Positions 6,001-36,337 of a DNA stretch of 64,000 bases are shown piece after piece (position 1 is the first letter of the stretch; each line of letters opens with the position of its first letter). Below the pieces are notes generated by a model, which was given only the letters and a program-made list of their open reading frames with translations, was not told where the DNA came from and searched no databases. The DNA comes from a virus (Duplodnaviria > Caudoviricetes): IMG/VR virus record IMGVR_UViG_3300042914_002678. The stretch is one strand, 5' to 3'. A program made the position numbers and the translations under genes.

Positions 6001-6874
6001 AAATGTTGATAATGTTGCTACTTTTAATGATAATGTTATTATTCAAGGATCTGCTAAAACATTTAGTGTAAAAGATAGTTCATCATCTAGTAAATTTAGT
6101 ATTGCTTCTGATACTGGAAATACAATAATTGAAGGAACTTTAACTCTTAATGGTGGTCTCACACTTAATGGAAAACTTGGTATAACAAATACTACAGATT
6201 CTAGTAGCTCTACAGATACTAACGCTTCATTCTATACTTCTGGTGGCGGTTCAATTGCTAAAAAACTTTTTGTCGGTGGAACTTTAGCAGCAGCAGATAG
6301 AATAACAGCAAGCAATGGTTTGACAGTAACTACTGGTGGTTTAACTGTATCTGCTGGTGGGATTGATGCCGCTGGTCAAACAGTTACGGCAACTACATTT
6401 ACTGGCAATGCTGCGTCTGCCACTATAGCTACAAATGTTTCAGGCGGCAGTGGTAGAATATTATATAATAGCGGAACTGACTCAACAACAACTTCTGGTA
6501 ATTTAACTTTTGATGGAACAAACTTAACAGTTGGTGGAGAAATTAGATCAACAAGTGATATTGTTGCATACTACAGCTCAGATGAAAGATTAAAAACAAA
6601 TATTTCATTAATTGAAAATGCACTAACAAAAGTTTCTGAGATTTCTGGTGTAACTTATAATTGGAATGATTTAGCAATAGGCAAAGATCAAAATATTCGT
6701 GAAGCAGGTGTTATTGCACAAGAAATTGAGAAAGTTTTACCAGAAGTTGTAACTGAAAGAGATAATGGTTTCCTTGCGGTTAAATATGAAAAACTTGTTC
6801 CCCTGTTAATTGAGGCAATCAAAGAACTGAACATTAAGGTTCAAGATATTGAACAAAAATTAACAGATAAATAA
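77..6874 (+). CDS. Giant tail-fibre/virion structural protein (2265 aa) with C-terminal intramolecular chaperone (peptidase S74-like) domain
   Basis: ORF track. Gly/Ser/Thr-rich beta repeats and recurring T-x-x-H-x-L/F-x-x-G motifs. C-terminus YSSDERLKTNI...YNW...GVIAQEIEKVLPEVV...VKYEKLVPLLIEAIKEL is the typical S74 chaperone signature. Late-type ACTAAATA at 37-44. Confidence 0.8.
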   Translation: MPLNKLENFIKNYEGRILYVNSNDLDATDSITNQGNSLTKPFKTIQRALLESARFSFVAGNNNDRNDRTTILVYPGEHVIDNRPGYGIKKIGTALAQSVAPDGSVTIPASDELTLTLESNFDLTQEDNILYKFNSVNGGVILPRGTSIVGLDLRKTKIRPKYVPNPTDSDVPSSSIFRITGNCYFWNFSFFDASESELVYTNNRIFTSGTGNQSTPTFSHHKLTCFEYADGVNVPTGYDITDLDMYYAKISNAFNEGSGRQIPAAQKFPLAPQAFSKERPEWEIVGAFGSDPIIISSLFSGDSATPSPIVTVNTLTDHELTAGTPIKIRGANVKDYNITTTVQTVIGPKSFTYLLPFVRSDLNANPSGSASVTIETDTVKGSSPYIFNISLRSVYGMNGMHADGSKASGFRSMVVAQFTAVSLQKDDRAFVKYNPITRTYSGIPVTKTLGTLLSSGSSSTDNDTIYHLDADAIYRTGWETSHIKCSNDSVIQVVSVFAIGFNRHFVAESGGDQSITNSNSNFGQISLSASGFKKEAFSKDDYGYITSIITPRSVISPESKIDWIPIDVGLTTSVGISSHLYLFGFNSQDNVPPNLIQGYRVGARKEDKLYLELPNRDIKSAKILMTDTTLVSGGSSTVSGTNSAVKEYVVGSLTSAPNYDTIQFTTTHKLQNGEKIIIISDTGDLPENITENKTYYTIVVDNTRIKLASSFTNAQNNVSLKMYGGSQLKIQSRVSDRDAGQLGSPIQFDPNHNNWFVYVERDNDIYSSIASLGVVGFEEPRTGVSYFSRIADSRSLDEKIYKVRIVIPKEAPNGKDPQDGFVIQESSTTGAITDSDFSLSSIDTSNYNFQRNYRFISTCTESSGTVTVITELPHNLTQGDRVLIKNVKSSTNLSGVGVTGFNGDFIVSSVPDANTFSYSTTDYNSIIHNVGIFSGPTSRSTTLPRFERNDLQSNFFIYRSETISPYIFNVQDGIYHAYVLKSDNAVPDHFTDYKYNQNIVDLYPQQDRDNYDDNPPSAVTFAKRSPIGDVVTNDLKKSITRETVDSLVKKLGVTPIIQSVSPLIAGVTTVTTTREHGFNGVVGFATLTSGTGYNSGTYYNVKLLNSDDSWNGARATVVISGVANSITSLNVTSPGSGYNDGVSLKVDGFSGSTIGITTTTISYLNDNSLQITGLGTATDGLYRVIRVPSKNQIAIARTTGDPAINPNQYVFNVAPSTQITSVVYNSTVGISTITCFSAHGLVAGNRFRVLDTNNNNLGDHIVNDTVGVTTFTVSGSVNTNSTRILKHGLSSNNLISDAGSENLAARGISFYDNESAILITDIATDTTSGIATFPIRLVNSGISTVTRFPIGSFIQVDNEIMRVSKSTLTGSGNNEITVLRGYLGTQKETHLANSLIKKIKPLAIELRRPSILRASGHTFEYLGYGPGNYSTGLPQIQVKTLTEREDFLSQSQERSCGSVVYTGMNSDGDFFIGNTKYSSASGQQTTFDIPIPTVTGQDPSRLSVVFDEVIVKERILVEGGKSKQILSQFDGPTTFNNNAILNGETKINGEVILSNILRQNNNTDSTAVNNGSIVSKGGVGILRNLNVGGNVSISGTATFNGQVQFNTGLVPDSIEDAYVGSSTKPWASGWFGGIGISTEGTPGGTEIEDRRITGWTGDLVLNSIGAGTSVRIENTSFYAENNAIIAGILTVGRTSITIDGSSNTIAVGKTASITLSPAGSLVLSSINGAPHEFDNVKITNTLETVGIATFRSSVVVDSQLTAKSNLNVTGVTTSSTGFFPLTDSGAPLGSLPLSFSEAFVDNLKLDGNTLSSTNTNGNITFSANGTGVVETVNDVNFGTSGDNSTLTVVGQLNADNLRLDTNSITSTDSNGNIILDANGTGIIDINSPIDVEGHANFQSTSNFVGEVTVETGIIPDTAGDAAYLGSNARPFSSAFIGNIRIAEGTAVGDDNTITTSSGDLNIDAFSNNINIKGNLNVDNVATFNDNVIIQGSAKTFSVKDSSSSSKFSIASDTGNTIIEGTLTLNGGLTLNGKLGITNTTDSSSSTDTNASFYTSGGGSIAKKLFVGGTLAAADRITASNGLTVTTGGLTVSAGGIDAAGQTVTATTFTGNAASATIATNVSGGSGRILYNSGTDSTTTSGNLTFDGTNLTVGGEIRSTSDIVAYYSSDERLKTNISLIENALTKVSEISGVTYNWNDLAIGKDQNIREAGVIAQEIEKVLPEVVTERDNGFLAVKYEKLVPLLIEAIKELNIKVQDIEQKLTDK

Positions 6875-6890
6875 TTAAAAACTATAGGAA

Positions 6891-9800
6891 ATGGCAAATT
6901 ATAATAAGTCATTTAATTTTAGGAATGGTGTACAAGTTGATGAAGATAATTTTTTAGTTGCTTCCACTGGATTGGTTGGAATTGGAACAACAATTCCAAG
7001 ATATGATTTAGATGTTTATGGAAATACAAATGTAGTAGGACTTATTACAAGTAAAAATTTAGTTGTTTCTGGAATAGCATCATTCACAGAAGTAATCATT
7101 GGAACTGGTATCACTATTTACGGTAATACTGGTATTATTAGTGCCACTTTTTATGGCGATGGATCAAATTTATTTGGTGTCCCAACTTCACAATGGGTTG
7201 ACGTTGACGTTGGACTTGGATTTACTAGCATATACGCTGCAGGAAATGTTGGTATTGCTACAACAAATCCTTCAAGGATTAATTCACTTCAAATTGGAGG
7301 GAGACCAGAATTAGGACAGTCTGGTGTTGGAATTAATTCAATTGGAAATATTAGAGCTTCTGGAATTATCACATCATCTTATTTTGATGGTGATGGATCT
7401 TCCTTAACAAACTTAAATGCAAGTAATATTTCTTCTGGAACCATAAGTAATTCTAGATTACCATCTAATATATTAGTTGGATTTGTATCAGCGACTAACT
7501 TTTTAAGTGGTGTTTCAACAATTGGATTTTTAACAGCAACCAATGCTTATTTGGGAGTTGCAACTGTAGGATTTTCTACAATTTCAAATCTTTACTCCGG
7601 AATTGGCACAATAGTTAACTTTAGTTCTACTTTGGTTTCTATTGGTGAAACTATAACTTCCAAAAAATCAGTAACCACTACTGGAATAGTAACAAATTTA
7701 ACTGTAGTTTCTGGAATTGTTACCTCATTAACTTCCACATTTTCAAACAGTGGTGTTGGAACTGTTGGAATTTTTACAGCAACTCACGCAAACATAGGAG
7801 TTGCTACAATCAGTACTTTGTATATTCAGTCGGGAATTACAAGTTCTTTAACATCCGAGTATGCCAACATTGGAATTGCAACTGTAGGATTTTCAACGGC
7901 GACCTATTCAAATATTGGAATATCAACTGCTTCTAAAATCAATGTTAGTAATGTTCAAATCGCAGTTTCTGGGAATACGGAAATTGACACTGTAAGTGGA
8001 GAATTAGTTTTAGATTCAAATTCTGGAACAGTAAGAATTGATGATAGATTAATTGTCACTGGCATAAGCACACTTCAAGGATCAGTAACTGTTGAAACTG
8101 GAATTGTTCCAGATGTTAAAAATGGTGCTTATCTTGGGTCTTCAGCACTACCATTTTCCGATGCTTATATTTCAAGTATTAGAATTGGATATGCTGGTGT
8201 TACTGAAATTGATACAACTAATGGTAATCTTATATTAAGTTCTCAAGAAGGATTTGTAAACGTAAGCGATAATTTTTATGTAAGTGGAATTTCTACATTA
8301 ACTGGAGAGGTAACTTTAAATACTGGAATTGTTCCAGATGTAGATTTTGATTCTTATATTGGATCTAATACAAAGTCATTCACAAATGCATATATTGGTG
8401 ATATAAGAATTGGAACAGCATCTAGTAATACAATTACAACTAGATCAAAAGAATTAATTTTAGACTCTAATTCTGGAAATACTAAGGTTAATGATAATTT
8501 AACAGTAACTGGATTTACTTCTATAACAGGAGGTGCATTAAATGTTTCAAGTGGAAACATTTATTCTAGTGGAATTATAAGTGCATTTAGTGGATTTTTA
8601 CCATTTGATAATCAAACTTCTCCGCTTGGATCTTCTACTAAAAAGTTTAGTGAAGTTTATGTTGATAACATTAATATAGGAGTTGGATCTGATAACAAAA
8701 TAGCATCAAGTAGTGGAGATATTCAATTATCACCTTCAAGTGGAGTTGTTGATCTTGTAGGACAACTAAAAGTTTCAAATGGAGCAATAATATCAGGAGT
8801 AACGACAGTTAATTCTTCATTAGTTCCAAATGTTGATATAACTTCTAACTTGGGGAGTTTAACAAAAGCATTCTCACAGTCATACTTAAATGGCATAACT
8901 GTTGGTGTTGCTGGAACGACTACAATTAGTACTCGTGGTGGTAATCTAGTATTAGATTCTAACACAGATCAAGTTATTGTCAATAACAATTTACAAGTGA
9001 TTGAAGAATTAACAGTAAATGGTTCATTTGTTGTTGAAACTCAAGGTGGATCAAACATAATCAATATTAATGCAACAGATTCTGTAATTGGAATAGGAAC
9101 AACAAATCCTTATGTTCTTTCACCAAATAGTAATTTATTAATTTATGATACTGTTACATCTCAACTTGATTTATATTCAACTTCAAGTACTGGAGAATCT
9201 GCCATACAATTTATTACTAATGGTGGAGTAGAAGGTAGATTAGGATTTAGTACTTCGGGTGATTTTACATTAAAAAGTAATGATCCTAGAGGAAATATTA
9301 GTTTTATATTAAATAATTCTGCTTTTTCCGGAATTAGTAGTGGCAATTTTTATTGGGAAAATGAGTATTATGGCAATAATTTAGCTACACTTACTTGGGA
9401 TGGAAAATTTGGCGTTAATAATGATGAACCACAGTTTACATTAGACGTTGTTGGAACTTCTTCAATTACTGACAATTCCTATTTTGGTAATAACGTTACA
9501 ATATCTGGAAATCTTATTGTTAATGGAACGGCAACATTTTCTTCGGGAATTACTTTAACAAATGATAGTTTACCAAATATAATTACTAAAAACATTAATG
9601 TAACAAGTGGTGTTTCTACTTTTAATACAATTCATTCAAATATCATTGGAATTGGAACAACTACAACTGGATTATTATTAAATTTAATAGATATAGATGC
9701 TAAAAATTCAAAAGCTTTATTCCAATCAATTGGTATAGGAACAACAGGTATAACAGAAAATACTTACAGTGATGTTGGATTATTAATATCAGGTAAAATG

Positions 9801-10175
9801 ATTGTTGATTCTAGTTCATATATTGGAATTGGAACAACCACAAAATTCTATCCTGGCGGAGATCCTGAATTTATTACTCCATCTGGATTAGAAGGTGATA
9901 TTCAAATCTTTGATCATGGTGTAGATTTATATAATACTTATGTAAATATATACAAACAATCTTCAGTAGGATTTAATACAGATCTTCCGAGAGGTGTATT
10001 AGATTTTGGATATGCCGATGATACTGCTAATTTTTATCCAGTTGTAATTCTACCAAATATAAATGATACTGCAAGAAATGGTATTGGAGATACAGCAACT
10101 GGAGCAGTAATTTTTAACACTAGTTCAAATACATTCCAAGGATGGACTGGTAGTGCTTGGGTAAACTTTCACTAA
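6891..10175 (+). CDS. Long tail-fibre-like structural protein (1094 aa)
   Basis: ORF track. GIGTT motifs, GIATVGFST-like repeats and repeated TGIVPD...YLGS...F...YI units. Late-type GATAAATA at 6866-6873. Confidence 0.7.
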   Translation: MANYNKSFNFRNGVQVDEDNFLVASTGLVGIGTTIPRYDLDVYGNTNVVGLITSKNLVVSGIASFTEVIIGTGITIYGNTGIISATFYGDGSNLFGVPTSQWVDVDVGLGFTSIYAAGNVGIATTNPSRINSLQIGGRPELGQSGVGINSIGNIRASGIITSSYFDGDGSSLTNLNASNISSGTISNSRLPSNILVGFVSATNFLSGVSTIGFLTATNAYLGVATVGFSTISNLYSGIGTIVNFSSTLVSIGETITSKKSVTTTGIVTNLTVVSGIVTSLTSTFSNSGVGTVGIFTATHANIGVATISTLYIQSGITSSLTSEYANIGIATVGFSTATYSNIGISTASKINVSNVQIAVSGNTEIDTVSGELVLDSNSGTVRIDDRLIVTGISTLQGSVTVETGIVPDVKNGAYLGSSALPFSDAYISSIRIGYAGVTEIDTTNGNLILSSQEGFVNVSDNFYVSGISTLTGEVTLNTGIVPDVDFDSYIGSNTKSFTNAYIGDIRIGTASSNTITTRSKELILDSNSGNTKVNDNLTVTGFTSITGGALNVSSGNIYSSGIISAFSGFLPFDNQTSPLGSSTKKFSEVYVDNINIGVGSDNKIASSSGDIQLSPSSGVVDLVGQLKVSNGAIISGVTTVNSSLVPNVDITSNLGSLTKAFSQSYLNGITVGVAGTTTISTRGGNLVLDSNTDQVIVNNNLQVIEELTVNGSFVVETQGGSNIININATDSVIGIGTTNPYVLSPNSNLLIYDTVTSQLDLYSTSSTGESAIQFITNGGVEGRLGFSTSGDFTLKSNDPRGNISFILNNSAFSGISSGNFYWENEYYGNNLATLTWDGKFGVNNDEPQFTLDVVGTSSITDNSYFGNNVTISGNLIVNGTATFSSGITLTNDSLPNIITKNINVTSGVSTFNTIHSNIIGIGTTTTGLLLNLIDIDAKNSKALFQSIGIGTTGITENTYSDVGLLISGKMIVDSSSYIGIGTTTKFYPGGDPEFITPSGLEGDIQIFDHGVDLYNTYVNIYKQSSVGFNTDLPRGVLDFGYADDTANFYPVVILPNINDTARNGIGDTATGAVIFNTSSNTFQGWTGSAWVNFH

Positions 10176-10185
10176 TTAATCCATT

Positions 10186-11847
10186 ATGGCACATCAAACT
10201 GCTCTAGCACCTCTCTTCACGTCTGGTGAAATTAAATTTAGTAAAATTAGAGATAGTTTTGGATTTTCAAGTGGAGAATTAAGAGCTTCTAATTTTATTA
10301 GAGATACTGACGTTAATAATACAAATCCAAAAATACCAGATGCTACTGAAAATTCAAATATTCCAACTAGTTCTACATCTCAATGGAAAGCATCCTATTT
10401 TAGGAATACTCTTAAAAATTATGAAGTTATTCAATATGACACTGATACAAATCTTTCACTTTCTAGCGTTGGTTCTTGGAATTCAAATCTAGGTAAAAAT
10501 ATTCAAAAAATTTATAATATAGGTGGAAGAATTAATGGAACAACTTCTAATGGATATGCATTAACTCTAGATGGAACTACTTATAATCTAACAGTTGAAG
10601 TCAGGGGTTATGTTCTTGGATATGGTGGTGCTGGAGGTGTTAGAGGAGCTTCTGGAGTCACAGAAACTGTTAGTTCTAATGTAAGTGCTAATATTAACAT
10701 ATTTGATAATGACAGAGACAATGAAATTGTAAATTTACAGACAAGTGGAACTGGTACTGCAACAGTGCAGATGTATGCAGGAATGAGAGATTATAGCAAC
10801 GGTGATAAAAGACCATGGAGATATATTTATTTTGGAGATGATAATGGTGTTCAATCAGTTTATGTAGATCCTGGACCATCAGGTTCATCTTCAAATAGAG
10901 AACAAGATTTTTATATTAATCTTGCAGTGACGGCAAACCGATCATATAGTATTAATGTTACAAATTTACAAAAAGCACTTTCTTGGTTTACAGACTATGG
11001 AAAAAGTAGTACTGCTATTCCAGATGGAACAGTTGTTAGTGGATTTTCTATGAGAGATGCTGATAATAATATTTGTAGAGGTCAGGTTAAAATAAATGGT
11101 ATAACTCAAGGGTCCTATTCAAGAGAACGCCTAGGAACAAATGGTGAAGATGGTGGTCATGCTATAAGTGTTCTTTCTTCTGGATCCAAAATTAAAATAG
11201 TTGAACTATCTGGAGGGAATAGAATTCGTGGTGGTGGAGGTGGTGGAGGTGCTGGAAAAGATGGAGTTGCTGGTACTGGTGGTCTCTGCGATACATATGA
11301 TGAAGCTGTAAATAATAGAACTTCTACTACACGTTGTAGAGCAAGTAATATGGATTCTGCTAGAGCAAAAGAAATTTGTAGTGGATTAGGATATTCGTCA
11401 TCTAGTAGAGATAATAGTAGTAAATGTTGTGAAAGAGACCCAGAGTATATAACAGTTTGTCTTAGACGGAACGCAAAAGGAGTATGTAAACAACCAGAGA
11501 TAAGACCAGGACCATGTATAAAATGGATTACATACGTATATTGTTGGAATAACTATACAAGTAGTGGTGGTGCAGCAGGATTAGGTGGTAATGGTGGGCA
11601 TGGCAGGGGATCCAATTGGAATCAACTTGATGGATCAACAGATAAACCTATTACAGCACCAGATTATGGTGCTATGGCTGGACCAACAAGAGGTGGTGCT
11701 GGTGGTGGTTGCGGAGCAACAAGTGGAACTGATGGTGTTAAAGGTGGTGATGGTGGTCCTTGGAATACAGCAGGACAAAGTGTTTCAGGTGCAGGGTCAG
11801 GTGGTACAGCAGGAATCAAAATATCCGGAACCAACTGGACTTATTGA
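10186..11847 (+). CDS. Glycine-rich tail-tip/adhesin-like protein with a Cys-rich C-terminal segment
   Basis: ORF track. Gly runs (GYGGAGG, RGGGGGGGAG, GGAAGLGGNGG) resemble the glycine-rich motifs of T-even gp38-type adhesins. It follows two fibre genes. Confidence 0.5.
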   Translation: MAHQTALAPLFTSGEIKFSKIRDSFGFSSGELRASNFIRDTDVNNTNPKIPDATENSNIPTSSTSQWKASYFRNTLKNYEVIQYDTDTNLSLSSVGSWNSNLGKNIQKIYNIGGRINGTTSNGYALTLDGTTYNLTVEVRGYVLGYGGAGGVRGASGVTETVSSNVSANINIFDNDRDNEIVNLQTSGTGTATVQMYAGMRDYSNGDKRPWRYIYFGDDNGVQSVYVDPGPSGSSSNREQDFYINLAVTANRSYSINVTNLQKALSWFTDYGKSSTAIPDGTVVSGFSMRDADNNICRGQVKINGITQGSYSRERLGTNGEDGGHAISVLSSGSKIKIVELSGGNRIRGGGGGGGAGKDGVAGTGGLCDTYDEAVNNRTSTTRCRASNMDSARAKEICSGLGYSSSSRDNSSKCCERDPEYITVCLRRNAKGVCKQPEIRPGPCIKWITYVYCWNNYTSSGGAAGLGGNGGHGRGSNWNQLDGSTDKPITAPDYGAMAGPTRGGAGGGCGATSGTDGVKGGDGGPWNTAGQSVSGAGSGGTAGIKISGTNWTY

Positions 11848-11878
11848 AAATAAATAAATTTGAATTATATTTAATAAT

Positions 11879-12196
11879 ATGAATGAAGAAAATTTTTCCA
11901 ATTTAACCTGGGAATTGCTTAAATATTTTGCATTTAATTATGATGAAATGCTTGATTGCTCTCAAGAAGTTTATAAAAGTAGAATAAGTATTTGCAAATC
12001 TTGTGATCAATTTGATGACATTGAAAAAGTTTGTATGGCCTGTGGTTGTAAATTAGGATCTAAAGCAAGAGCAATTATTGAGTCTTGCCCATTATCAAAA
12101 TGGGATGTTGATAAATCTGATTGGTCAGAAAGAATGAAAAAAGTAGAAGAAATTAATATTCAACTAAGTCTTGACAATAATAAGGAATCTGAGTAG
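11879..12196 (+). CDS. Small Cys-rich protein (CxxC...CxxCGC...CP), possible metal-binding fibre-associated protein
   Basis: RISICKSCDQF...CMACGCKLGSKAR...ESCPLSKW. AATAAATA at 11849-11856 upstream. Confidence 0.5.
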   Translation: MNEENFSNLTWELLKYFAFNYDEMLDCSQEVYKSRISICKSCDQFDDIEKVCMACGCKLGSKARAIIESCPLSKWDVDKSDWSERMKKVEEINIQLSLDNNKESE

Positions 12197-13953: not shown

Positions 13954-14765
13954 CTCAATTATTTACTTGCACATCCGATTCTCCTTATGATAGGCACACC
14001 TATGAAGTTGTGCTTAAAAGTGGTAAAAACGTAATTTTTGAGAACTGGGAGGACACTCAGAGGTATTGGTTTGAGCACAGTCAGATTCCTGATTTTTTGG
14101 ATCTTATAATCGTAAAGGACAAAAAGAAAAGTAAAGAAAAAGTAAAGAGTGGTGGATTTGGTCAATAAATAATTTTAATCATAGAGAAACTTATGACTCC
14201 TTTGTTTCTCGTAACAATTTTATCTTGTTCTGATATTGTGTTGATTGCGAATAGATTGGTAAATGTTAGACTATTGACACCAGAACAAAAAATAGAAATT
14301 CTTCGGGAACTTAAAAAAGTAGTTCCTTCCTGTCCTTTGATTATTAAACCAAATGGAACAAAATGAATCACAAACTGATAAATGGGATCGAGGTCTAACT
14401 CTTTTTGAGGAGAGTGTATTAAAACCTGATCCAGAACTTCGTCAGTGTGCTCACAATCAAAAGTGTTACAATGAACTCATGGCAGTGCGTGAGCATGTGT
14501 TAGAATACCTCAAAACTTTAAGACAATGAGTTCCACTTACATATACTTTGTTATCTTTTTTTGTATTGCTTACTTAATTGTTACCGATCAATCCATAGCG
14601 AGGGCATTTTATATGCTGACTCAACTTGCTCAAGTACAATATGAAAAAACAAAGTGGTGGATAATTCACTCACCAGATAATATCATAGTTAAATGGTTGA
14701 TTTACAGAAAATCTATGAAGATGGCGAAAGAACTGATGGGAGAATTGGAAAAGAAGAATAAATAA
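13950..14765 (+). CDS. Run of small hypothetical ORFs (13950-14168, 14193-14366, 14526-14765 and others)
   Basis: ORF track plus hand translation; tightly coupled starts and stops; ATAAATA at 14165-14171. Confidence 0.55.
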
Positions 14766-14768
14766 TAA

Positions 14769-14820
14769 TGCTTTTATGTGTGGTAACTAAAAGCAAAAGG
14801 GGGGATCCCCCCCCTTTTTT
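14769..14820 (+). ncRNA. Candidate antisense sRNA A (hairpin plus terminator) upstream of a GIY-YIG gene
   Basis: ATAAATA 14758-14764; stem TGCTTTTA/TAAAAGCA; G/C terminator hairpin followed by T6; 14772-14786 is complementary to leader 14845-14859. Confidence 0.5.
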
Positions 14821-14833
14821 ACTGCGTAATTCG

Positions 14834-14841
14834 TATAAATA
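14834..14841 (+). promoter_or_regulatory. T4-type late promoter TATAAATA
   Basis: Exact T4 late consensus upstream of ATG 14866. Confidence 0.75.
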
Positions 14842-14865
14842 GTATTACCACACATAAAAAGCAGT

Positions 14866-15480
14866 ATGAATACTCTACGCATATACACTTATCGTATATC
14901 CTTTGAGGAAGTGCCGTATTATTATTATGGGGTCCATAAAGAAAAAAATTTTAACGAAGAGTATTATGGGTCTCCTGTAACCAACAGATGGTGCTGGGAA
15001 ACTTATACTCCAAAGAAACAGATATTAGAATATTTTGTTGATTGGGAAGAAGCGCAAAGAGTAGAAGCAAGAATAATAAAAGAGTTTTATAATAAAGATA
15101 AGTGGTGTCTAAATGAAAATTGTGCTGGGTATATATCCTTACAGAAAAGAAGTGAGGCAGGAAAAGTTGGAGGTAAAAGGGGGTCGGCAAAATGTAAAGA
15201 AATGGGAATCGGAATATTTGGGATGTCCTCAGAAAAAAGAACTGAAACTGCTAAAAAATCTGTTAAACAGGCAAAGAAAAATAAAACTGGTATATTTGCT
15301 CTAACAAAAGAGCAATTAGTTGAGAATGGAAAAAAAGGTGGTATAATATCTTCTAAAAAGTTAAACTCTCAAAAGTGGATGTGTTTGGAAACTGGTATGG
15401 TATCTACCATAGGTCCTCTTACAAGGTATCAAAAAGTGAGGGGTATTGATACTTCTAAAAAAGTAAAAATAAATAACTAA
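14866..15480 (+). CDS. Free-standing GIY-YIG (Seg-like) homing endonuclease
   Basis: N-terminal IYTYRI...YYYYG...YYGS...E..R.E...I...LNEN catalytic-domain pattern and a basic GK/GGK-repeat C-terminus. Paralogous to 21198-21863. Confidence 0.7.
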   Translation: MNTLRIYTYRISFEEVPYYYYGVHKEKNFNEEYYGSPVTNRWCWETYTPKKQILEYFVDWEEAQRVEARIIKEFYNKDKWCLNENCAGYISLQKRSEAGKVGGKRGSAKCKEMGIGIFGMSSEKRTETAKKSVKQAKKNKTGIFALTKEQLVENGKKGGIISSKKLNSQKWMCLETGMVSTIGPLTRYQKVRGIDTSKKVKINN

Positions 15481-19700: not shown

Positions 19701-21087
19701 GAACATTCTCATAAGTGGATAGTGGGACTTTATACTCCTGATGGTGGTAGATTTGATATGCTACACCGATACTTTGGAACATTTGATACAAGAGAAGACG
19801 CAAAGGTATTCGCAGCAGATTATAAGGACAAATATACAAAACCAGGATTTATTTCCAGAACCAAAATCTTTCCATTATGTGAGGTATTAAAGGACACTTG
19901 AAGAACTGGCACAGGGTATCTCCACAGGTGCCCTTTTTGCCATATAATAACTTCAGTTCAAACAAAGCGATGACCACCATCACTCAAGAGCACTGGGACA
20001 CACTCTACACCAAACTCTATGAGGCGTATGAAGAGTGCAGCAAAAACTATGATGAGACTTACCGACAAATGATCGGTCAAGTTCTGGATCACATGATCTA
20101 CAACAAACCTTATCTGAACATCAAATGATCAGAGCAATCCTCAATCAGTTTCCAGTTAAGTATGGAACTTACACTGCTGAAAACAACAAGATCCGCCGAA
20201 CATTTTCCAACGGTTTCAGTTACATCGTAGAAGAATTTAACTCACCAGAAGAAGCACAACGTATCGTCAGTGACCTCAACTATCTTACAGGCAAATGACT
20301 GAAACCAAAACCTATCCCTACCTCAAATACATTCCACATTGGTTTGCTCTTCGTTTTATTACATTTGCTCCACTTGCGGTCGTCCAATCAACAGTAGATT
20401 TTATTTCTATTTCTTTGGATAAACTTTATGATAAAATGGATAAAGTTCTTCCGCAAGCATATGTTGAAAAGCAAGTAGAATGGGATCAGTTGCCCAAACG
20501 AAATCAAGAGGCGATTGAGTATCTTGCAAAAAAGCGTGATACTACCAAAGAACGAATTCTCATTCAAACTGTGAAACCATGACTGACCACGAAGAACTCC
20601 CAGTATCAAACGAATTCGTCACATTTGTAAGAATTCAACTTGACCACGAACAAAGACAACAACTCCGTCGTTATCTAAATCTTCATTATCTTGGTGATGT
20701 GAATTGTAATGAGTATGATGAGAACTTCAAACTTGTTCCCAAATACCCAGAGAAAGAAACACAAGAGTTCAAAGATGCTATGTGGAGAGCAGATATGTCA
20801 GTAGATTATCAAGTCAAAGTGGTTTATGATGTGAATGGTAAATGTAAAATGGAGTTGCTATGAAACCTTATCTTTTGATTGTTGGGGACAACTACTACCC
20901 TTCTGCTTATACTGGTGATTGGGTTGCTTGTTATTCTACCGAAGAAGAAGCAAAAGAAAAATGGGAAGAACTATCTAAAGATAAGTATAGTAATGATTGG
21001 TATGAAATCGTTGATTTGAGGGAATGGATGGAAGATACTACATTTGATACTTTTGGACCTACTGGACTTATTGGAGACCCACAATAG
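16781..21087 (+). CDS. Run of about 17 small overlapping hypothetical ORFs (early-island type)
   Basis: ORF track; ATGA/TAATG overlaps; no motif recognised with confidence. Confidence 0.55.
19892..19956 (+). promoter_or_regulatory. Early promoter / stem-loop element with palindromic box
   Basis: GGACACTTGAAGAACTGGCACA, short GGGTATC..GGTGCCC stem, TATAAT 19943-19948. Near-identical to 23880-23943. Confidence 0.7.
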
Positions 21088-21102
21088 TAGAATAAATAGA
21101 AG

Positions 21103-21160
21103 TGTCTGTTTGGACGGCAATCTCTACAGACAAAAGATTAGGTGCTTTCGGGCACCTTTT
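21103..21160 (+). ncRNA. Candidate antisense sRNA B upstream of a GIY-YIG gene
   Basis: ATAAATA 21092-21098; stem TGTCTGT/ACAGACA; terminator GGTGC-TTTCGG-GCACC-TTTT; TTTGGACGGCA is complementary to leader TGCCGTCCAAA 21177-21187. Confidence 0.5.
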
Positions 21161-21164
21161 CTAT

Positions 21165-21172
21165 TATAAATA
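21165..21172 (+). promoter_or_regulatory. T4-type late promoter TATAAATA
   Basis: Exact consensus upstream of ATG 21198. Confidence 0.75.
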
Positions 21173-21197
21173 ATAATGCCGTCCAAATAGAATAGAA

Positions 21198-21863
21198 ATG
21201 ACTAAAAATAGTCCTAGAATTTACACATATAAGGTTACCTTTGAAGAAGTTCCTTATTACTATTATGGTAGTAAAAAAGAAAGGTATTTTGATGAAGAGT
21301 ATTGGGGTTCTCCCGTAGCAAACAAATGGTGTTGGGGACTTTATACTCCAAAGAAACAGATATTGGAATATTTTGAGTTTAGTGATGAAGGATATATCAA
21401 AGCACAAGAAGTTGAAGGGAGATTAATTAACCCAGTATATAATACCGATAAATGGTGCTTAAATGAAAGTTGCTTGGGAGTTTTTTCTTTAGAGCAAAAA
21501 AGTAAAGCAGGAAAAAAAGCATATGAACTTAAATTAGGGGTTCATTCAAGAAGTAAAGACCAAATGAGTAAAGATGGTAAAAAAGGTGGAAACAGCAATA
21601 GAGAAAATAAAACTGGAATTTGTGGAAGAAGTTTGGAAGAAATGATTGAACACGGCAGAATAACTGGTTATAAAAAGAAAGAATTAAATATCGGTGTTTG
21701 TGGTTTATCAAAAGAACAGAGAATTGAAAATTCTAAAATAACTAATTCTCAAAGATGGAAATGTTGTATAAGTGGTTATGTATCTACTGCTTCTGGTGTA
21801 GTTCAGCATCAAAAAGGAAAAGGAATAGATACATCAAAAAGTAATAGACGCAGAATAGCATAG
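21198..21863 (+). CDS. Free-standing GIY-YIG (Seg-like) homing endonuclease, paralogue of 14866-15480
   Basis: RIYTYKVTFEEVPYYYYG...YWGSP...TPKKQILEYF...DKWCLNE is nearly identical in pattern to the 14866 gene. Confidence 0.7.
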   Translation: MTKNSPRIYTYKVTFEEVPYYYYGSKKERYFDEEYWGSPVANKWCWGLYTPKKQILEYFEFSDEGYIKAQEVEGRLINPVYNTDKWCLNESCLGVFSLEQKSKAGKKAYELKLGVHSRSKDQMSKDGKKGGNSNRENKTGICGRSLEEMIEHGRITGYKKKELNIGVCGLSKEQRIENSKITNSQRWKCCISGYVSTASGVVQHQKGKGIDTSKSNRRRIA

Positions 21864-21928
21864 GACACTTCTCAAACTGGAACAAGGGCACTTGAAAACG
21901 GGTGCCCTTTGTCGTATAATGACTTCAT
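21863..21928 (+). promoter_or_regulatory. Early promoter / stem-loop element with palindromic box
   Basis: GGACACTTCTCAAACTGGAACA; stem AAGGGCAC/GTGCCCTT; TTGAAA 21892-21897, 17 nt, TATAAT 21915-21920. Confidence 0.75.
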
Positions 21929-24900
21929 AAGAAACAAACCGATGAAACCACTTAAACTCTTTCAATACGATAAAAAAGTTTGGGATGATGGTGATGCCGA
22001 CTACACTTGGCAGTTCGGTATCATCAACAACAAAACATTATTCTGGGTTCATTATGAAAATCCCAGTCGTTTAGTTTTTAGTGATGGTGGATTACACATC
22101 CTATTCTCATTCTTTACTAATTCTTTATTTGGAGTAGATTTTCAACTTGGTAAGGTTGGTTTGAGTTTCAATTTTTTCACAGAATACTTTGATGGGTGGG
22201 AAGAATGACTAACCAACAACGAGCAGAAGAACTCCTAAAAGTTATTTGTAAAAGTGAAGCACACAATACTGCTTGGATGCTTCAAGAGGTTCTTCAACAA
22301 CTTCGTAAGCAACTATCAGGAACTAATAAGATTGATTTTACTGATGAACTGGATGTGATGTTTAATGCTGGATGGGATGAATGTCTCAAAGAGATTGATG
22401 CTATTTGTGATGAACTTTTAGAACTATGATGACTAACACAGCACACCAAATCTGGGAAGCATTCAAAGCAGAACTTACACAACCAGCAACAGATGATATG
22501 AAGGAAGCACTTGCTACTGCTATTCGTGTGATTTCTTCTCTAATTTATAGAGATGGAGTGCTTGCAAATGAACCTTGGCTTACTCATACTGCTCAAGAAC
22601 TAAATGAAATTGCTGGTGATGTGGAGGCACTCTAATGTCTATTGAAGATGGATTGACTTATCGGCACAAAGCATATGCTAATTCTATGAAAGCATATCGT
22701 CAGGCAAATCCCGATTGGAAAGAACAACAACTCGCAAGTGAAGAGTATGCTAAAAAATGGATGGAAACATCTGCTCGTGCTTATCAAATAGCACAAGAAA
22801 AACTTGCTGAATTGAATTTGGAGGCATTATGAAAGAACAAGCAAAGAAAATAGATGATGCCTACTGGAGAGCAATAACTAATGTTCCCGATATTTACACA
22901 AAGGGTCGGGTGCGTTTTGCTGCTGGTCTCCGTGAAACTATCAACCAACTCCAACAAAGCCCTGGTGTGATTATGTGTGCTGATGTGTTAGAATTGTGTG
23001 ATGAATTGGAGGCACTATGATTGAACTTCGTATCGTTGAAAATGAACTGGCAATGAAACCAGACATTCAGTATCGTTTTATGTTGTTTTCTGTTGATGCT
23101 TCTGGTGCTTTGTGCCCACCAAATCCTGATATGAAATGGTCTGAATGGAGAACTGCCGAATATGTGAAGGCAGAGGAGATTGTAAATGACTAAAACTCAA
23201 TCAGCATTAGAACGAGTTATTATTGAACTTGATAGTTGGTGTGATAATTGGACACCAACATCTTATAATGACCCTCGTATTAGTTTGAGACAGATTGCTG
23301 ACCGTGCCCGTGATGTTTTAGAACAGGAAGATGACTGAACCATTAAATCATAAACTTGATGTAAGTAAAATCAAAACACTCACAGATGTAAAGAATGTCT
23401 TTGAGTGTATGTGTTTGATTACTAATGCGAGTGAAGGATACGAAAAGTATGAACTCATCAAAGAATACTTCACTATTCCAAATGAGCCACAAGAACTTAC
23501 TGGATTTAAACTACCACGCAAGTCATTAGAAGAAATCTCACAAGAGTTTGATGAGAAAATTGATAAACAGATTGAGGATGTAGAGTATAAGTTCGCACAA
23601 CTCAAACATTATCAAGAGTATCAGTTTAGTAAAAAGATTACCAGGATTATTGAAGATATTGAACACGCAAAAAAATATGGTAGTTTTCCAGCAAAATTAG
23701 ATTACTCTAAACTTACTGCGACTGGTGGCAATATTACTTCCAATTTTGTAATCAAATCAGGTGGTAAAGAAGTTGGGTATTATACATTCGGTAATGGATA
23801 TTTGAGGTATCATATGGATAAAAAACCGACTGCGATTGTTCGGTTCTTTATGAATAAACTTTTAGATTTCCGTTGGATAGACACTTGAAGAACTGGCACA
23901 GGAGCATCCCACAGGTGCTCCTTTTGCCCTATAATGACTTCATACACACAGACACCTGATGAAACGCAACAACTTTGATTTTATGGATGCTTGGATTGCT
24001 GTGATTGCTGGTGGTGCTGTTTTGGTTTTTCTTGCTGCTCCCATCACAGGAATTATGAATGTCATTACAACTCAACAAGCACTCAACGAACAGTGTGGGA
24101 CTAACTACAACTTCTTCCAAGTTGCTACTGCGGGTGATAATCTTTCCCGTCTTTGTCAAATCAAAAATCAAACGGTGACGATTAAATGACTGAACGAGTA
24201 AAATTCACACAAGTCTCTAGAGTAATCTGTCCAAAGACAGGTGTGCATTATCTTGATGCAGTTGATATGAATGGGATTCACTGGATGGCACAAATGGAAA
24301 CTGGTGTAGAAAAGTGGATTACATATAAAAAAGTTTGGTATAAAGACCCACAGCAACCTTATGACGTTTGAAGAAATCCTAGAAGAATACGGACAGGAAG
24401 TATTAGACATATACTACGAACTCTTCCCAGATAAAAGTATCTCAAAGTTTCCTGACCGTTTCTGTGGTTTTGTTGGTGAATATCATGATTTTGTGTTAGA
24501 CTGTTATCATTCAACTGGTAGTGATGAACTGGAAACACTTGAAGACTTTATGAATGGTGTATTTCAAGAGTATTATTACTATTGCGAAAAGACAGCAACA
24601 GGATTTATATTTTATAATGAAGACCGATGACTGAGACCGACATCTCAAAAGTTCTCATAGAAGGAGAATACGCAACCATTATGGGAGTGAAGTATAAGAG
24701 AGTGGAAGAACCAAAGACAGCAGTAGAAGAAGCATATAAAGAAGTTTTCGGCAAGTATCCTGAAACTGGTTCAGATGCAACTAAATTTGATATTCAATCC
24801 TGGAATATCTTTCGGTATGGTTGGAATGCAGCAAAGGAAGATGGAGTGGTTGATGAACCAGAGTATTATGATGAAGTAGAGTGGGATGAGAAAGATAATC

Positions 24901-35419: not shown

Positions 35420-35543
35420 GACTTTTATTCTTGGAGTTGGAGTTGGTGTTCTCATCACAGTGGGATTTGCACTTCTATCTGTTGCATCCGATGCTGATGA
35501 TGTGATTGGCAAAGATGACGAAAACTACTACAATAAATAATAA

Positions 35544-35598
35544 TGCCTGCGTTGGGTGCAATCTTCACAGGTAGAGGAGGGGCAGAGATGCTCCTTTT
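35544..35598 (+). ncRNA. Candidate antisense sRNA C upstream of a GIY-YIG gene
   Basis: ATAAATA 35533-35539; stem TGCCTG/CAGGTA; terminator AGGGGCA-GAGA-TGCTCCT-TTT; GTTGGGTGCAAT is complementary to leader ATTGCACCCAAC 35613-35624. Confidence 0.5.
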
Positions 35599-35602
35599 CT
35601 TG

Positions 35603-35610
35603 TATAAATA
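35603..35610 (+). promoter_or_regulatory. T4-type late promoter TATAAATA
   Basis: Exact consensus upstream of ATG 35636. Confidence 0.75.
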
Positions 35611-35635
35611 CTATTGCACCCAACAAAGAGCAGTT

Positions 35636-36337
35636 ATGACTAACAAAGGCAAAATTTATTGTGCCCATTGTATTTTTACTGGAAAGAAATACATAGGACA
35701 AACAAAACAAAAATTACTTTGCGATAGAATAGCAACTCATTTTGCAGATGCTAATAAAAATCATAGTAATGGTAAGTTTCAAAGAGCACTAAAAAAATAT
35801 GGAAGAAGTGGATTTATATGGGGAGTAATTGAAGAGTGTGATTTTGATACGTTAAATGATAAAGAAATCTATTGGATTGCAGAATACAAAACTGTAGAAA
35901 AGGGATATAATCTGTCTCCTGGTGGTGGGCAACCTCCAGAATATTTTTCTAAAGAATATTTGGTAGAAGAACCAAGTGGCAATAGAAAAGAAATTAAGAA
36001 TCTTTCGCAATATTCTAGGGAAAATAACTTAAATGCCGCACATATGCACGAAACACTTTATGGTAAAAGGTTGCACCATAAAGGATATAAACTTATACCA
36101 AGAACTGATGTAGAAATTGAAAGATATGAAAATGAAAGAAGTATAAGAGAGGATACTAGTAGAAAAGGAGCGCCTGGAGAAAAAAATGGTAGAGCGATAC
36201 TTGATTGGGACAAAGTTAATGAAATAAGAAAATTACATAATACCAAGAAATATAAAAATCAAGAAATATCAAATATGTTTGGAATTAAAAAAGTAACATT
36301 AGAAAAAATAGTCTCCAATAAACTGTGGACAGTTTAG
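35636..36337 (+). CDS. GIY-YIG homing endonuclease; true start probably ATG 35636, not 35543
   Basis: KIYCAHCIFTGKKYIGQT...DRIATH...EIYWI...GYN motifs. The late promoter lies inside the longer ORF-track version. Confidence 0.85.
   Translation: MTNKGKIYCAHCIFTGKKYIGQTKQKLLCDRIATHFADANKNHSNGKFQRALKKYGRSGFIWGVIEECDFDTLNDKEIYWIAEYKTVEKGYNLSPGGGQPPEYFSKEYLVEEPSGNRKEIKNLSQYSRENNLNAAHMHETLYGKRLHHKGYKLIPRTDVEIERYENERSIREDTSRKGAPGEKNGRAILDWDKVNEIRKLHNTKKYKNQEISNMFGIKKVTLEKIVSNKLWTV

Follow-up and report, generated by a model that had tools for sequence, protein, structure and literature searches.

Homing endonucleases need restraint if the phage that carries them is to be spared, and the answer known from T4 is a cis-acting hairpin with a late promoter inside it. 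Gene B (21198..21863, + strand; ATG at 21198, 221 aa), a nuclease gene within the 64,000-nt stretch of viral DNA analysed here (the window), is preceded by a hairpin, a terminator and a leader complementary to that hairpin, and this arrangement raises the question of whether the nuclease is restrained within its own transcript, by a separate small RNA, or by both. A reading of the sequence alone had proposed that gene B shares this architecture with a paralogue, gene A, and that hairpin and leader had been replaced together in a compensatory manner, giving each nuclease its own non-cross-reacting regulator. The window has a G+C content of 36.8% and Synechococcus phage S-SRM01 as its nearest isolate match, and its sequence resembles that of freshwater T4-like cyanophages. 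The motif [AC]TAAATA (14 copies on the + strand, 2 on the − strand) lies 17–32 nt 5′ of several large ORFs and fits the late promoter reported for cyanomyoviruses, NATAAATA (PMC2984593).

Anatomy and conservation of the control module

The control module occupies the first ~110 nt of the cassette that carries gene B, and all of the elements previously proposed are present in it. A late-promoter-like motif, P1 (ATAAATA, 21092–21098, + strand; AATAAATA; predicted start G21104), is followed by a local hairpin (21103..21132, +) with a 7-bp stem (TGTCTGT 21103–09 and ACAGACA 21126–32) and a 16-nt loop, an intrinsic terminator, T1 (21140..21162, +), in which a 7-bp stem with a UUCG loop (21140–21157) precedes TTTTCT, and P2, a consensus T4-type late promoter (TATAAATA, 21165..21172, +; predicted start G21178). 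The 5′ half of the local stem and the 5′ part of its loop together make up an anti-leader arm (21105..21119, +), most of which is held in the loop. This arm pairs, over the proposed 15 bp with one G–U, with a leader arm (21177..21191, +) formed by the first nucleotides of the predicted P2 mRNA and ending 6 nt 5′ of the AUG. The two arms constitute a 15-nt inverted repeat that is 93% complementary, the G–U being its sole mismatch; a helix of this length was reached in 0 of 5000 shuffles (largest, 13 bp), and the duplex energy of −26.4 kcal/mol compares with −7.1 ± 2.3 kcal/mol for shuffled arms. A spacing of 57 nt separates the arms and encloses both P2 and the complete terminator T1. No Shine–Dalgarno sequence is evident in the leader of gene B, the 3′ end of which (21186–21197) is a tandem AATAGA/ATAGAA repeat (three such units occur in the related locus L022); this element between helix and AUG may be a ribosome landing site, though it is unlike a Shine–Dalgarno sequence. 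An Rfam search returned no family matching the module, its sole match being a spurious miRNA precursor (20 bits, cut-off 80).

Upstream of two further nuclease genes in the window, A and C, the elements recur in the same order with paired sequences of their own. Gene A (ORF 14866–15477) is indeed a paralogue of gene B (46% identity, E 1.5e-56), and its module (14758..14868, +) has another pairing class and another terminator. The module of gene C (35533..35638, +) precedes a canonical GIY-YIG gene (ATG at 35636; Pfam GIY-YIG score 24.3 bits, cut-off 22.6). The octamer TATAAATA occurs only three times in the window, once before each of genes A, B and C. The gene A insertion site (window 14700–14780) is also occupied in another phage, L088/L019 (IMGVR_UViG_3300025674_000409), in which the shared upstream gene is followed by a module of another pairing class and by another B-family nuclease. 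Apart from a few substitutions in that upstream gene, the two sequences match closely up to and including P1 and ATAATG; from the first hairpin base onward they diverge totally.

To define the wider family, loci were collected through an exact 32-mer spanning terminator and P2 (78 IMG/VR loci) and through B-family proteins (15 further loci), and the retrieved DNA was scanned for the pattern N[A/C]TAAATA, 4–6 nt, hairpin, terminator, TATAAATA, leader and ATG. The scan gave ~90 unique modules from lake phage contigs in IMG/VR and from the isolate S-SRM01. Duplex energies of their cognate arms range from −19 to −36 kcal/mol, compared with −4 to −11 kcal/mol for ordinary pairs of late-promoter motifs. 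In an alignment of 78 unique module sequences, the core helix between anti-leader and leader was paired in 90.4% of cells and the local hairpin in 91.3%, each with changes on both sides at 6 of 7 pairs, while slid controls were paired in 37–57%; both helices therefore covary. The 972 ungapped helix-core cells contained 34 G·U mismatches, 0 A·C and 2 others, an asymmetry which argues that the constraint acts on the + strand RNA and not on DNA.

This count bears directly on a reading in which the inverted repeat around P2 is a DNA-level element, that is, a protein operator, a cruciform or a recombination site. The repeat does flank P2, and I-TevI is known to bind an operator that overlaps its own late promoter (PMC2988022). 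However, an excess of + strand wobble mismatches is unexpected for a DNA duplex or a protein site, the same repeat sequence precedes nucleases of different families, and the arms are not palindromic half-sites of fixed sequence. A DNA operator or cruciform was rejected on the 34-to-0 count, and we regard a DNA-level explanation as a whole as very improbable.

Both promoter motifs also hold conserved positions. In all 78 modules a late promoter separates the arms, and the long-range helix starts at the fourth to sixth nucleotide past the P2 TAAATA, where the late mRNA is predicted to begin; P2 is exactly TATAAATA in 75 of them. A P1 TAAATA was found 39–49 nt 5′ of the terminator in 56 of 56 unique loci chosen solely by terminator and P2, and in 14 of 14 loci chosen by protein. 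The sixth base past TAAATA is a purine in nearly all modules (76/78 for P1, 77/78 for P2), and the downstream flanks of both motifs have an nTAaTGC context in common. P2 is nearly invariant, whereas in P1 the first base is free and the second position is A or C; judged by this sequence, P1 may be a weak promoter. The RNA predicted to run from P1 to T1 has a median length of 53 nt across the 78 modules.

Among cultured phages, the two-promoter pattern occurs at seven places, all on one strand, in the freshwater isolate S-SRM01, which is cultured with Synechococcus sp. KCZYC6 (MW015081; positions 17955, 48435, 51249, 55961, 62408, 77561 and 192423, the last matched twice at 192419/192423). The hairpin-plus-terminator layout was seen at six of these, and 77561 is a pattern match alone. 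Of the other genomes scanned, Syn9, S-PM2 (S-PM2d), P-HM2 and P-SSM2 had no copy of the module; infection transcriptomes or transcript maps have been published for these four phages. A search of sequencing runs matched lake-water DNA runs, and six metatranscriptome runs contained just 7–9% of the words; the sequences of the four runs examined are de Bruijn contigs that break off wherever module variants part, and are thus uninformative on RNA starts, ends and strand.

A mobile nuclease cassette and the exchange of its module as a block

Comparison with eight IMG/VR relatives (L095–L102) that have an empty site delimits a mobile cassette of ~870 bp (21084..21954, +), the right edge of which is uncertain by ~8 nt owing to a TGAAAC repeated at the junction. 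In the empty sites, CCCACA is joined directly to GTG-AAACTCTTTCAA, forming an overlap between the upstream stop and the downstream GTG start; the upstream gene is 88–100% identical to that in the window, and an RNA-library contig (X15 record 1) carries the same joint. These empty sites lack P1, so that P1 belongs to the cassette and is not a leftover host promoter. Presence/absence polymorphism at a conserved site (flanking genes 88–100% identical) marks the unit as mobile, and its insertion into this lake-water T4-like cyanophage is recent. Read 5′ to 3′, the cassette supplies the upstream gene with a stop codon, carries the module elements P1, hairpin, T1, P2 and leader ahead of the nuclease ORF, and ends with a second hairpin, a sigma-70-like promoter and a new ATG for the downstream gene. 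The second hairpin, T2 (21884..21909, +), lies 3′ of the nuclease ORF; its 8-bp stem and weak T tail were recognised by eye, not by the terminator scan. The sigma-70-like promoter (TTGAAA-17-TATAAT, 21892..21920, +; 11 of 12 matches) sits within the 3′ end of the cassette, and relative to the empty sites the downstream gene gains an ATG and three extra codons (21943..21954, +). From these sequence features, the cassette seems to restart, via the sigma-70-like promoter, the host-polymerase transcription that its own terminators break. The −35 box of this promoter lies in the loop of the cassette's 3′ hairpin (21884–21920).

The protein encoded by the cassette had been labelled a GIY-YIG nuclease, and here the evidence from fold and the evidence from sequence models part ways. 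Protein B has a GIY-YIG-like N-terminal domain, NUMOD3-like repeats in mid-protein, variable in number, and a conserved C-terminal W-C-x-TG...YQ..GID domain, and it matched no Pfam, PHROG or PDB sequence profile; its paralogue A matches phrog_314 ("homing endonuclease") at 6.6e-10. Residues 1–103 of protein B were modelled with AlphaFold (pLDDT 71.6), and in an exhaustive structural alignment of the model with 48,161 chains the six best matches were all GIY-YIG nucleases: I-TevI (Z 6.0, rmsd 2.8, 77 residues aligned), PD-T4-3 (Z 5.9), T4 EndoII (4.0), UvrC (3.9), HIGLE (3.9) and Slx1 (3.8), values that are moderate. A Foldseek search of the PDB with the same model gave no significant E-value. 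The invariant residues Y9, Y20–23, G24, E73, N82 and N89 fit the GIY-YIG motif, with no invariant Arg after YYYG. We therefore hold with moderate confidence, on the strength of the predicted fold and not of sequence models, that protein B is a GIY-YIG-fold nuclease.

The module is not confined to this nuclease. The 95 nt from hairpin to ATG (21103–21197) are 100% identical to modules in three other loci (L025, L034 and L069), where they precede an unrelated HNH-type MNYLK nuclease that matches NUMOD3 and phrog_655. Identity of 95/95 nt before an unrelated gene indicates that hairpin and leader were swapped as one block and that the module is tied to no particular nuclease. Across the family, the 78 unique modules fall into 32 pairing classes, with mean duplex energies of −22.8 kcal/mol for cognate and −10.3 kcal/mol for non-cognate combinations, and one class can serve several nuclease families (B-type and canonical GIY-YIG, HNH, NUMOD3); a weak PD-(D/E)XK match (E 0.006, below the Pfam cut-off) also occurs among the proteins served. 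The earlier proposal of a joint replacement is supported, hairpin and leader always changing together, and the part of it that has to be given up is compensation, the joint change being a block swap rather than a stepwise process. The module therefore moves as a block whose ends lie near P1 and at the ATG.

Between the arms, terminator and P2 form a conserved stretch that is a possible recombination handle. Recombinants that separate hairpin from leader are nearly absent nonetheless (one chimera and one orphan among ~127 instances), which argues for selection on cognate pairing. In the chimera (L071:306-406:+), a hairpin of the "cttatgtgtgtcgcaacc" class stands before a leader of the "tgcggtttcaatag" class, with a duplex of just −6.9 kcal/mol, and an intact 251-aa MNYLK nuclease ORF follows, which leaves this nuclease apparently unmasked. 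The orphan (L053, − strand, oriented position 6128) consists of P1, hairpin and terminator; CATAAATA and a gene that does not encode a nuclease come next, and no leader complementary to the hairpin is present. It may be what is left of a cassette since lost, or else a small-RNA gene in its own right. The module also stands before three small proteins with no clear nuclease family, of 136, 161 and 143 aa (L038:6886-7390:+; L047, − strand, 9752–10329; and L006, − strand, 11591–12119, respectively); the third has a weak PD-(D/E)XK match, and the three may be new cargo types of the cassette family.

Proposed masking in cis and a candidate small RNA

Taking these observations together, we consider it probable that the locus is a free-standing homing-endonuclease cassette with a portable RNA module, in which a T4-type cis mask is combined with a probable ~53-nt antisense RNA. 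The cassette (21084–21954) sits between two small genes of a freshwater T4-like cyanophage that are coupled in translation, and in the proposed model T1 would stop transcription entering from upstream or from P1. In any RNA reading through T1, arm 21105–21119 would pair with the first 15 nt of the leader (21177–21191) and hide the ribosome landing zone, leaving only P2-started mRNA translatable, on the principle of T4 I-TevI and mobE. P1, one start-distance before the covarying hairpin and T1, would probably release a ~53-nt hairpin RNA, the loop of which could act in trans by pairing with the start of the P2 mRNA, so lowering nuclease output in the late phase of infection.

Predicted folds describe the first of these two routes. 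In the read-through RNA of gene B, the long-range helix dominates (−41.5 compared with −27.5 kcal/mol), and genes A and C behave alike; pairing probability is at least 0.84 over the arm, from −21 to −7, and the AUG stays unpaired, while the 5′ end of the P2 mRNA alone is predicted to be unstructured and open. That the helix stops 6 nt before the AUG and that no Shine–Dalgarno sequence is evident count against the model at this point, and the block to translation is a putative one. The two routes would also compete: an efficient T1 would leave few read-through RNAs for the cis mask, and a leaky T1 would yield less short RNA. As P1 and P2 are both of the late type, a repressor acting in trans would be made together with its target.

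The cis and trans readings both fit the data and are not mutually exclusive, and another account keeps the first route only, with the upstream arm acting solely within read-through transcripts as in T4 I-TevI and Aeh1 mobE. The mask is favoured by 14 kcal/mol in the read-through fold, the placing of a late promoter between the arms follows the paradigm published for T4 (PMC2988022), metagenomic endonuclease genes have been interpreted likewise (PMC2677866), orphan hairpins are rare (1 in ~127), and orthogonality within genomes is no greater than chance. Under this account, P1 would be kept for another reason (e.g., for the stop codons of the upstream gene) or would be the promoter of a functionless short product. 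Left unexplained, however, are the TAAATA hexamer, invariant at a fixed distance in both locus sets (56/56 and 14/14), the purine start and TAATGC context common to P1 and P2, the conserved strong terminator between the arms and the covariation of the local stem, the 3′ half of which never pairs with the leader. A purely cis model gives no role to the conserved P1, the covarying local stem or the terminator between the arms, and we view it as possible but hold it only tentatively. As read from sequence, P1, a 5′ hairpin at the predicted start and T1 form a compact predicted gene for a ~53-nt small RNA, and it is this layer that the combined model, with mask and candidate antisense RNA, accommodates.

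A stronger trans reading assigns each nuclease a dedicated small RNA whose pairing sequence has been diversified by selection against cross-reaction. The succession of promoter, 5′ hairpin and terminator is typical of a small-RNA gene, and cognate pairing is preferred both across the 78 modules and among the predicted RNAs A, B and C, for which in silico co-folding gains with their own leaders were −12.6, −15.7 and −14.8 kcal/mol, respectively, compared with 0 to −7.5 kcal/mol for cross pairs. In a search across the window, unconstrained RNAduplex energies failed to discriminate targets; by contiguous helix length the cognate site was the single best for B, and for arms A and C, with G–U allowed, equally long chance helices can be formed at other places in the window. 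Same-class module pairs were also depleted within contigs (0 of 52 pairs in 25 multi-module contigs, compared with 6.1% between contigs; P ~0.04), a marginal difference in which the pairs are not independent and which is confounded by assembly and recombination.

Against a dedicated regulator stands the service of unrelated nucleases by the same module (the 95/95-nt identity), since such a module is not the regulator of one nuclease. Selection against cross-reaction fares no better: the cross-pairing penalty within genomes is no higher than background (mean ddG 13.1 compared with 12.5 kcal/mol for all pairs), one genome holds two classes one base apart (ddG 4.7–6.2), and in 14 B-family loci the divergence of the pairing core, 0.40, is close to that of third codon positions, 0.30, taken as a synonymous proxy, so that diversifying selection is not clearly indicated. 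Covariation between arm and leader is also accounted for by a mask formed in cis within read-through RNA. Of the original claim of a private, non-cross-reacting regulator for each nuclease, cognate preference in silico survives and selected non-cross-reaction is not supported, and we judge the stronger trans reading unlikely. A different extension of the trans route is that the modules form a natural library of at least 30 mutually selective small-RNA/leader pairs, in which the ~53-nt RNA of each cassette would throttle its own nuclease in trans and, in mixed infection, would shut down nucleases of the same class encoded by a competing phage, classes would act as incompatibility groups for homing endonucleases and block exchange would provide escape; this proposal we regard as doubtful.

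Relation to known control systems

The cis part of the module is known in kind, and the added layer of promoter, hairpin and terminator is new. Hairpins that sequester the ribosome-binding site and have a nested late promoter are described for I-TevI, I-TevII, I-TevIII, segB and mobE of Aeromonas phage Aeh1; transcripts from that late promoter start past the 5′ arm, while longer ones contain it and are masked, and terminators and multi-layer control have been reported for mobE (PMC2988022). The present locus resembles them in its T4-type phage, its selfish nuclease gene and the late promoter TATAAATA between the arms. It differs in the 57-nt spacing of the arms, which takes in an entire intrinsic terminator; in the 5′ arm, which lies within its own covarying hairpin with a second late-promoter motif one start-distance upstream; and in the target of the helix, which is the very start of the late mRNA and not a recognisable Shine–Dalgarno sequence.

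Also related are the hairpins that Dassa et al. (2009) described in 15 of 16 endonuclease 5′ UTRs at "fractured gene" loci of ocean metagenomes, ten of which contain TATAAATA, with two conserved, mutually complementary motifs that were read as simple cis hairpins (PMC2677866). The word "terminator" is absent from the text of that paper, the accessible part of which makes no mention of an upstream promoter, a small RNA, pairing classes or the exchange of blocks between families (PMC2677866). These hairpins, in cyanophage-like DNA, probably represent the same module family or a sister family.

Antisense restraint of a mobile element's own enzyme has a precedent in IS10/Tn10, in which the loop of a stem-loop RNA, RNA-OUT, pairs with the 5′ end of the transposase mRNA (RNA-IN) and blocks ribosome binding. 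Whereas RNA-OUT is read, with full complementarity, from the other strand of the DNA that encodes its target, the putative RNA here would be encoded in tandem upstream on the same strand, with 12–18 nt of complementarity. Encoding beside, and not opposite, the harmful gene is a feature of the type I toxin–antitoxin pairs tisB/istR-1, zor/orz and shoB/ohsC, the non-overlapping small RNAs of which are complementary to the toxin 5′ UTR over ~18–20 nt. The small RNAs of those pairs are chromosomal and divergently transcribed, and the toxins they control are membrane peptides; the present case differs in its lytic phage, its tandem orientation and its DNA endonuclease. An RNA linked to a homing-endonuclease gene is also known from a T4-like cyanophage, S-PM2, the CfrI of which was reported by Millard et al. 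(2010; cited in PMC2984593) to be a ~225-nt true antisense transcript spanning the endonuclease gene and psbA. As noted above, the S-PM2 genome has no copy of the present module.

The module family is widespread among T4-like cyanophages of lakes. To the T4 solution it adds a terminator, a further promoter motif and a covarying hairpin that presents the pairing sequence, and it passes as a block from one nuclease gene to another, whether GIY-YIG, HNH/NUMOD3 or of other type. Should the short RNA exist, it would to our knowledge be the first trans-encoded antisense regulator of a homing endonuclease, and the family would offer a ready set of compact, selective riboregulator pairs. Even with the cis mask as its sole activity, the module usefully flags mobile nuclease cassettes and miscalled start codons. 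An example of the latter is a NUMOD3 gene of S-SRM01 (L001:1508-2209, equivalent to MW015081 51291–51992), the annotated CDS of which begins within the module terminator, and for which the module layout puts the real start at an ATG ~58 nt downstream (L001 1565).
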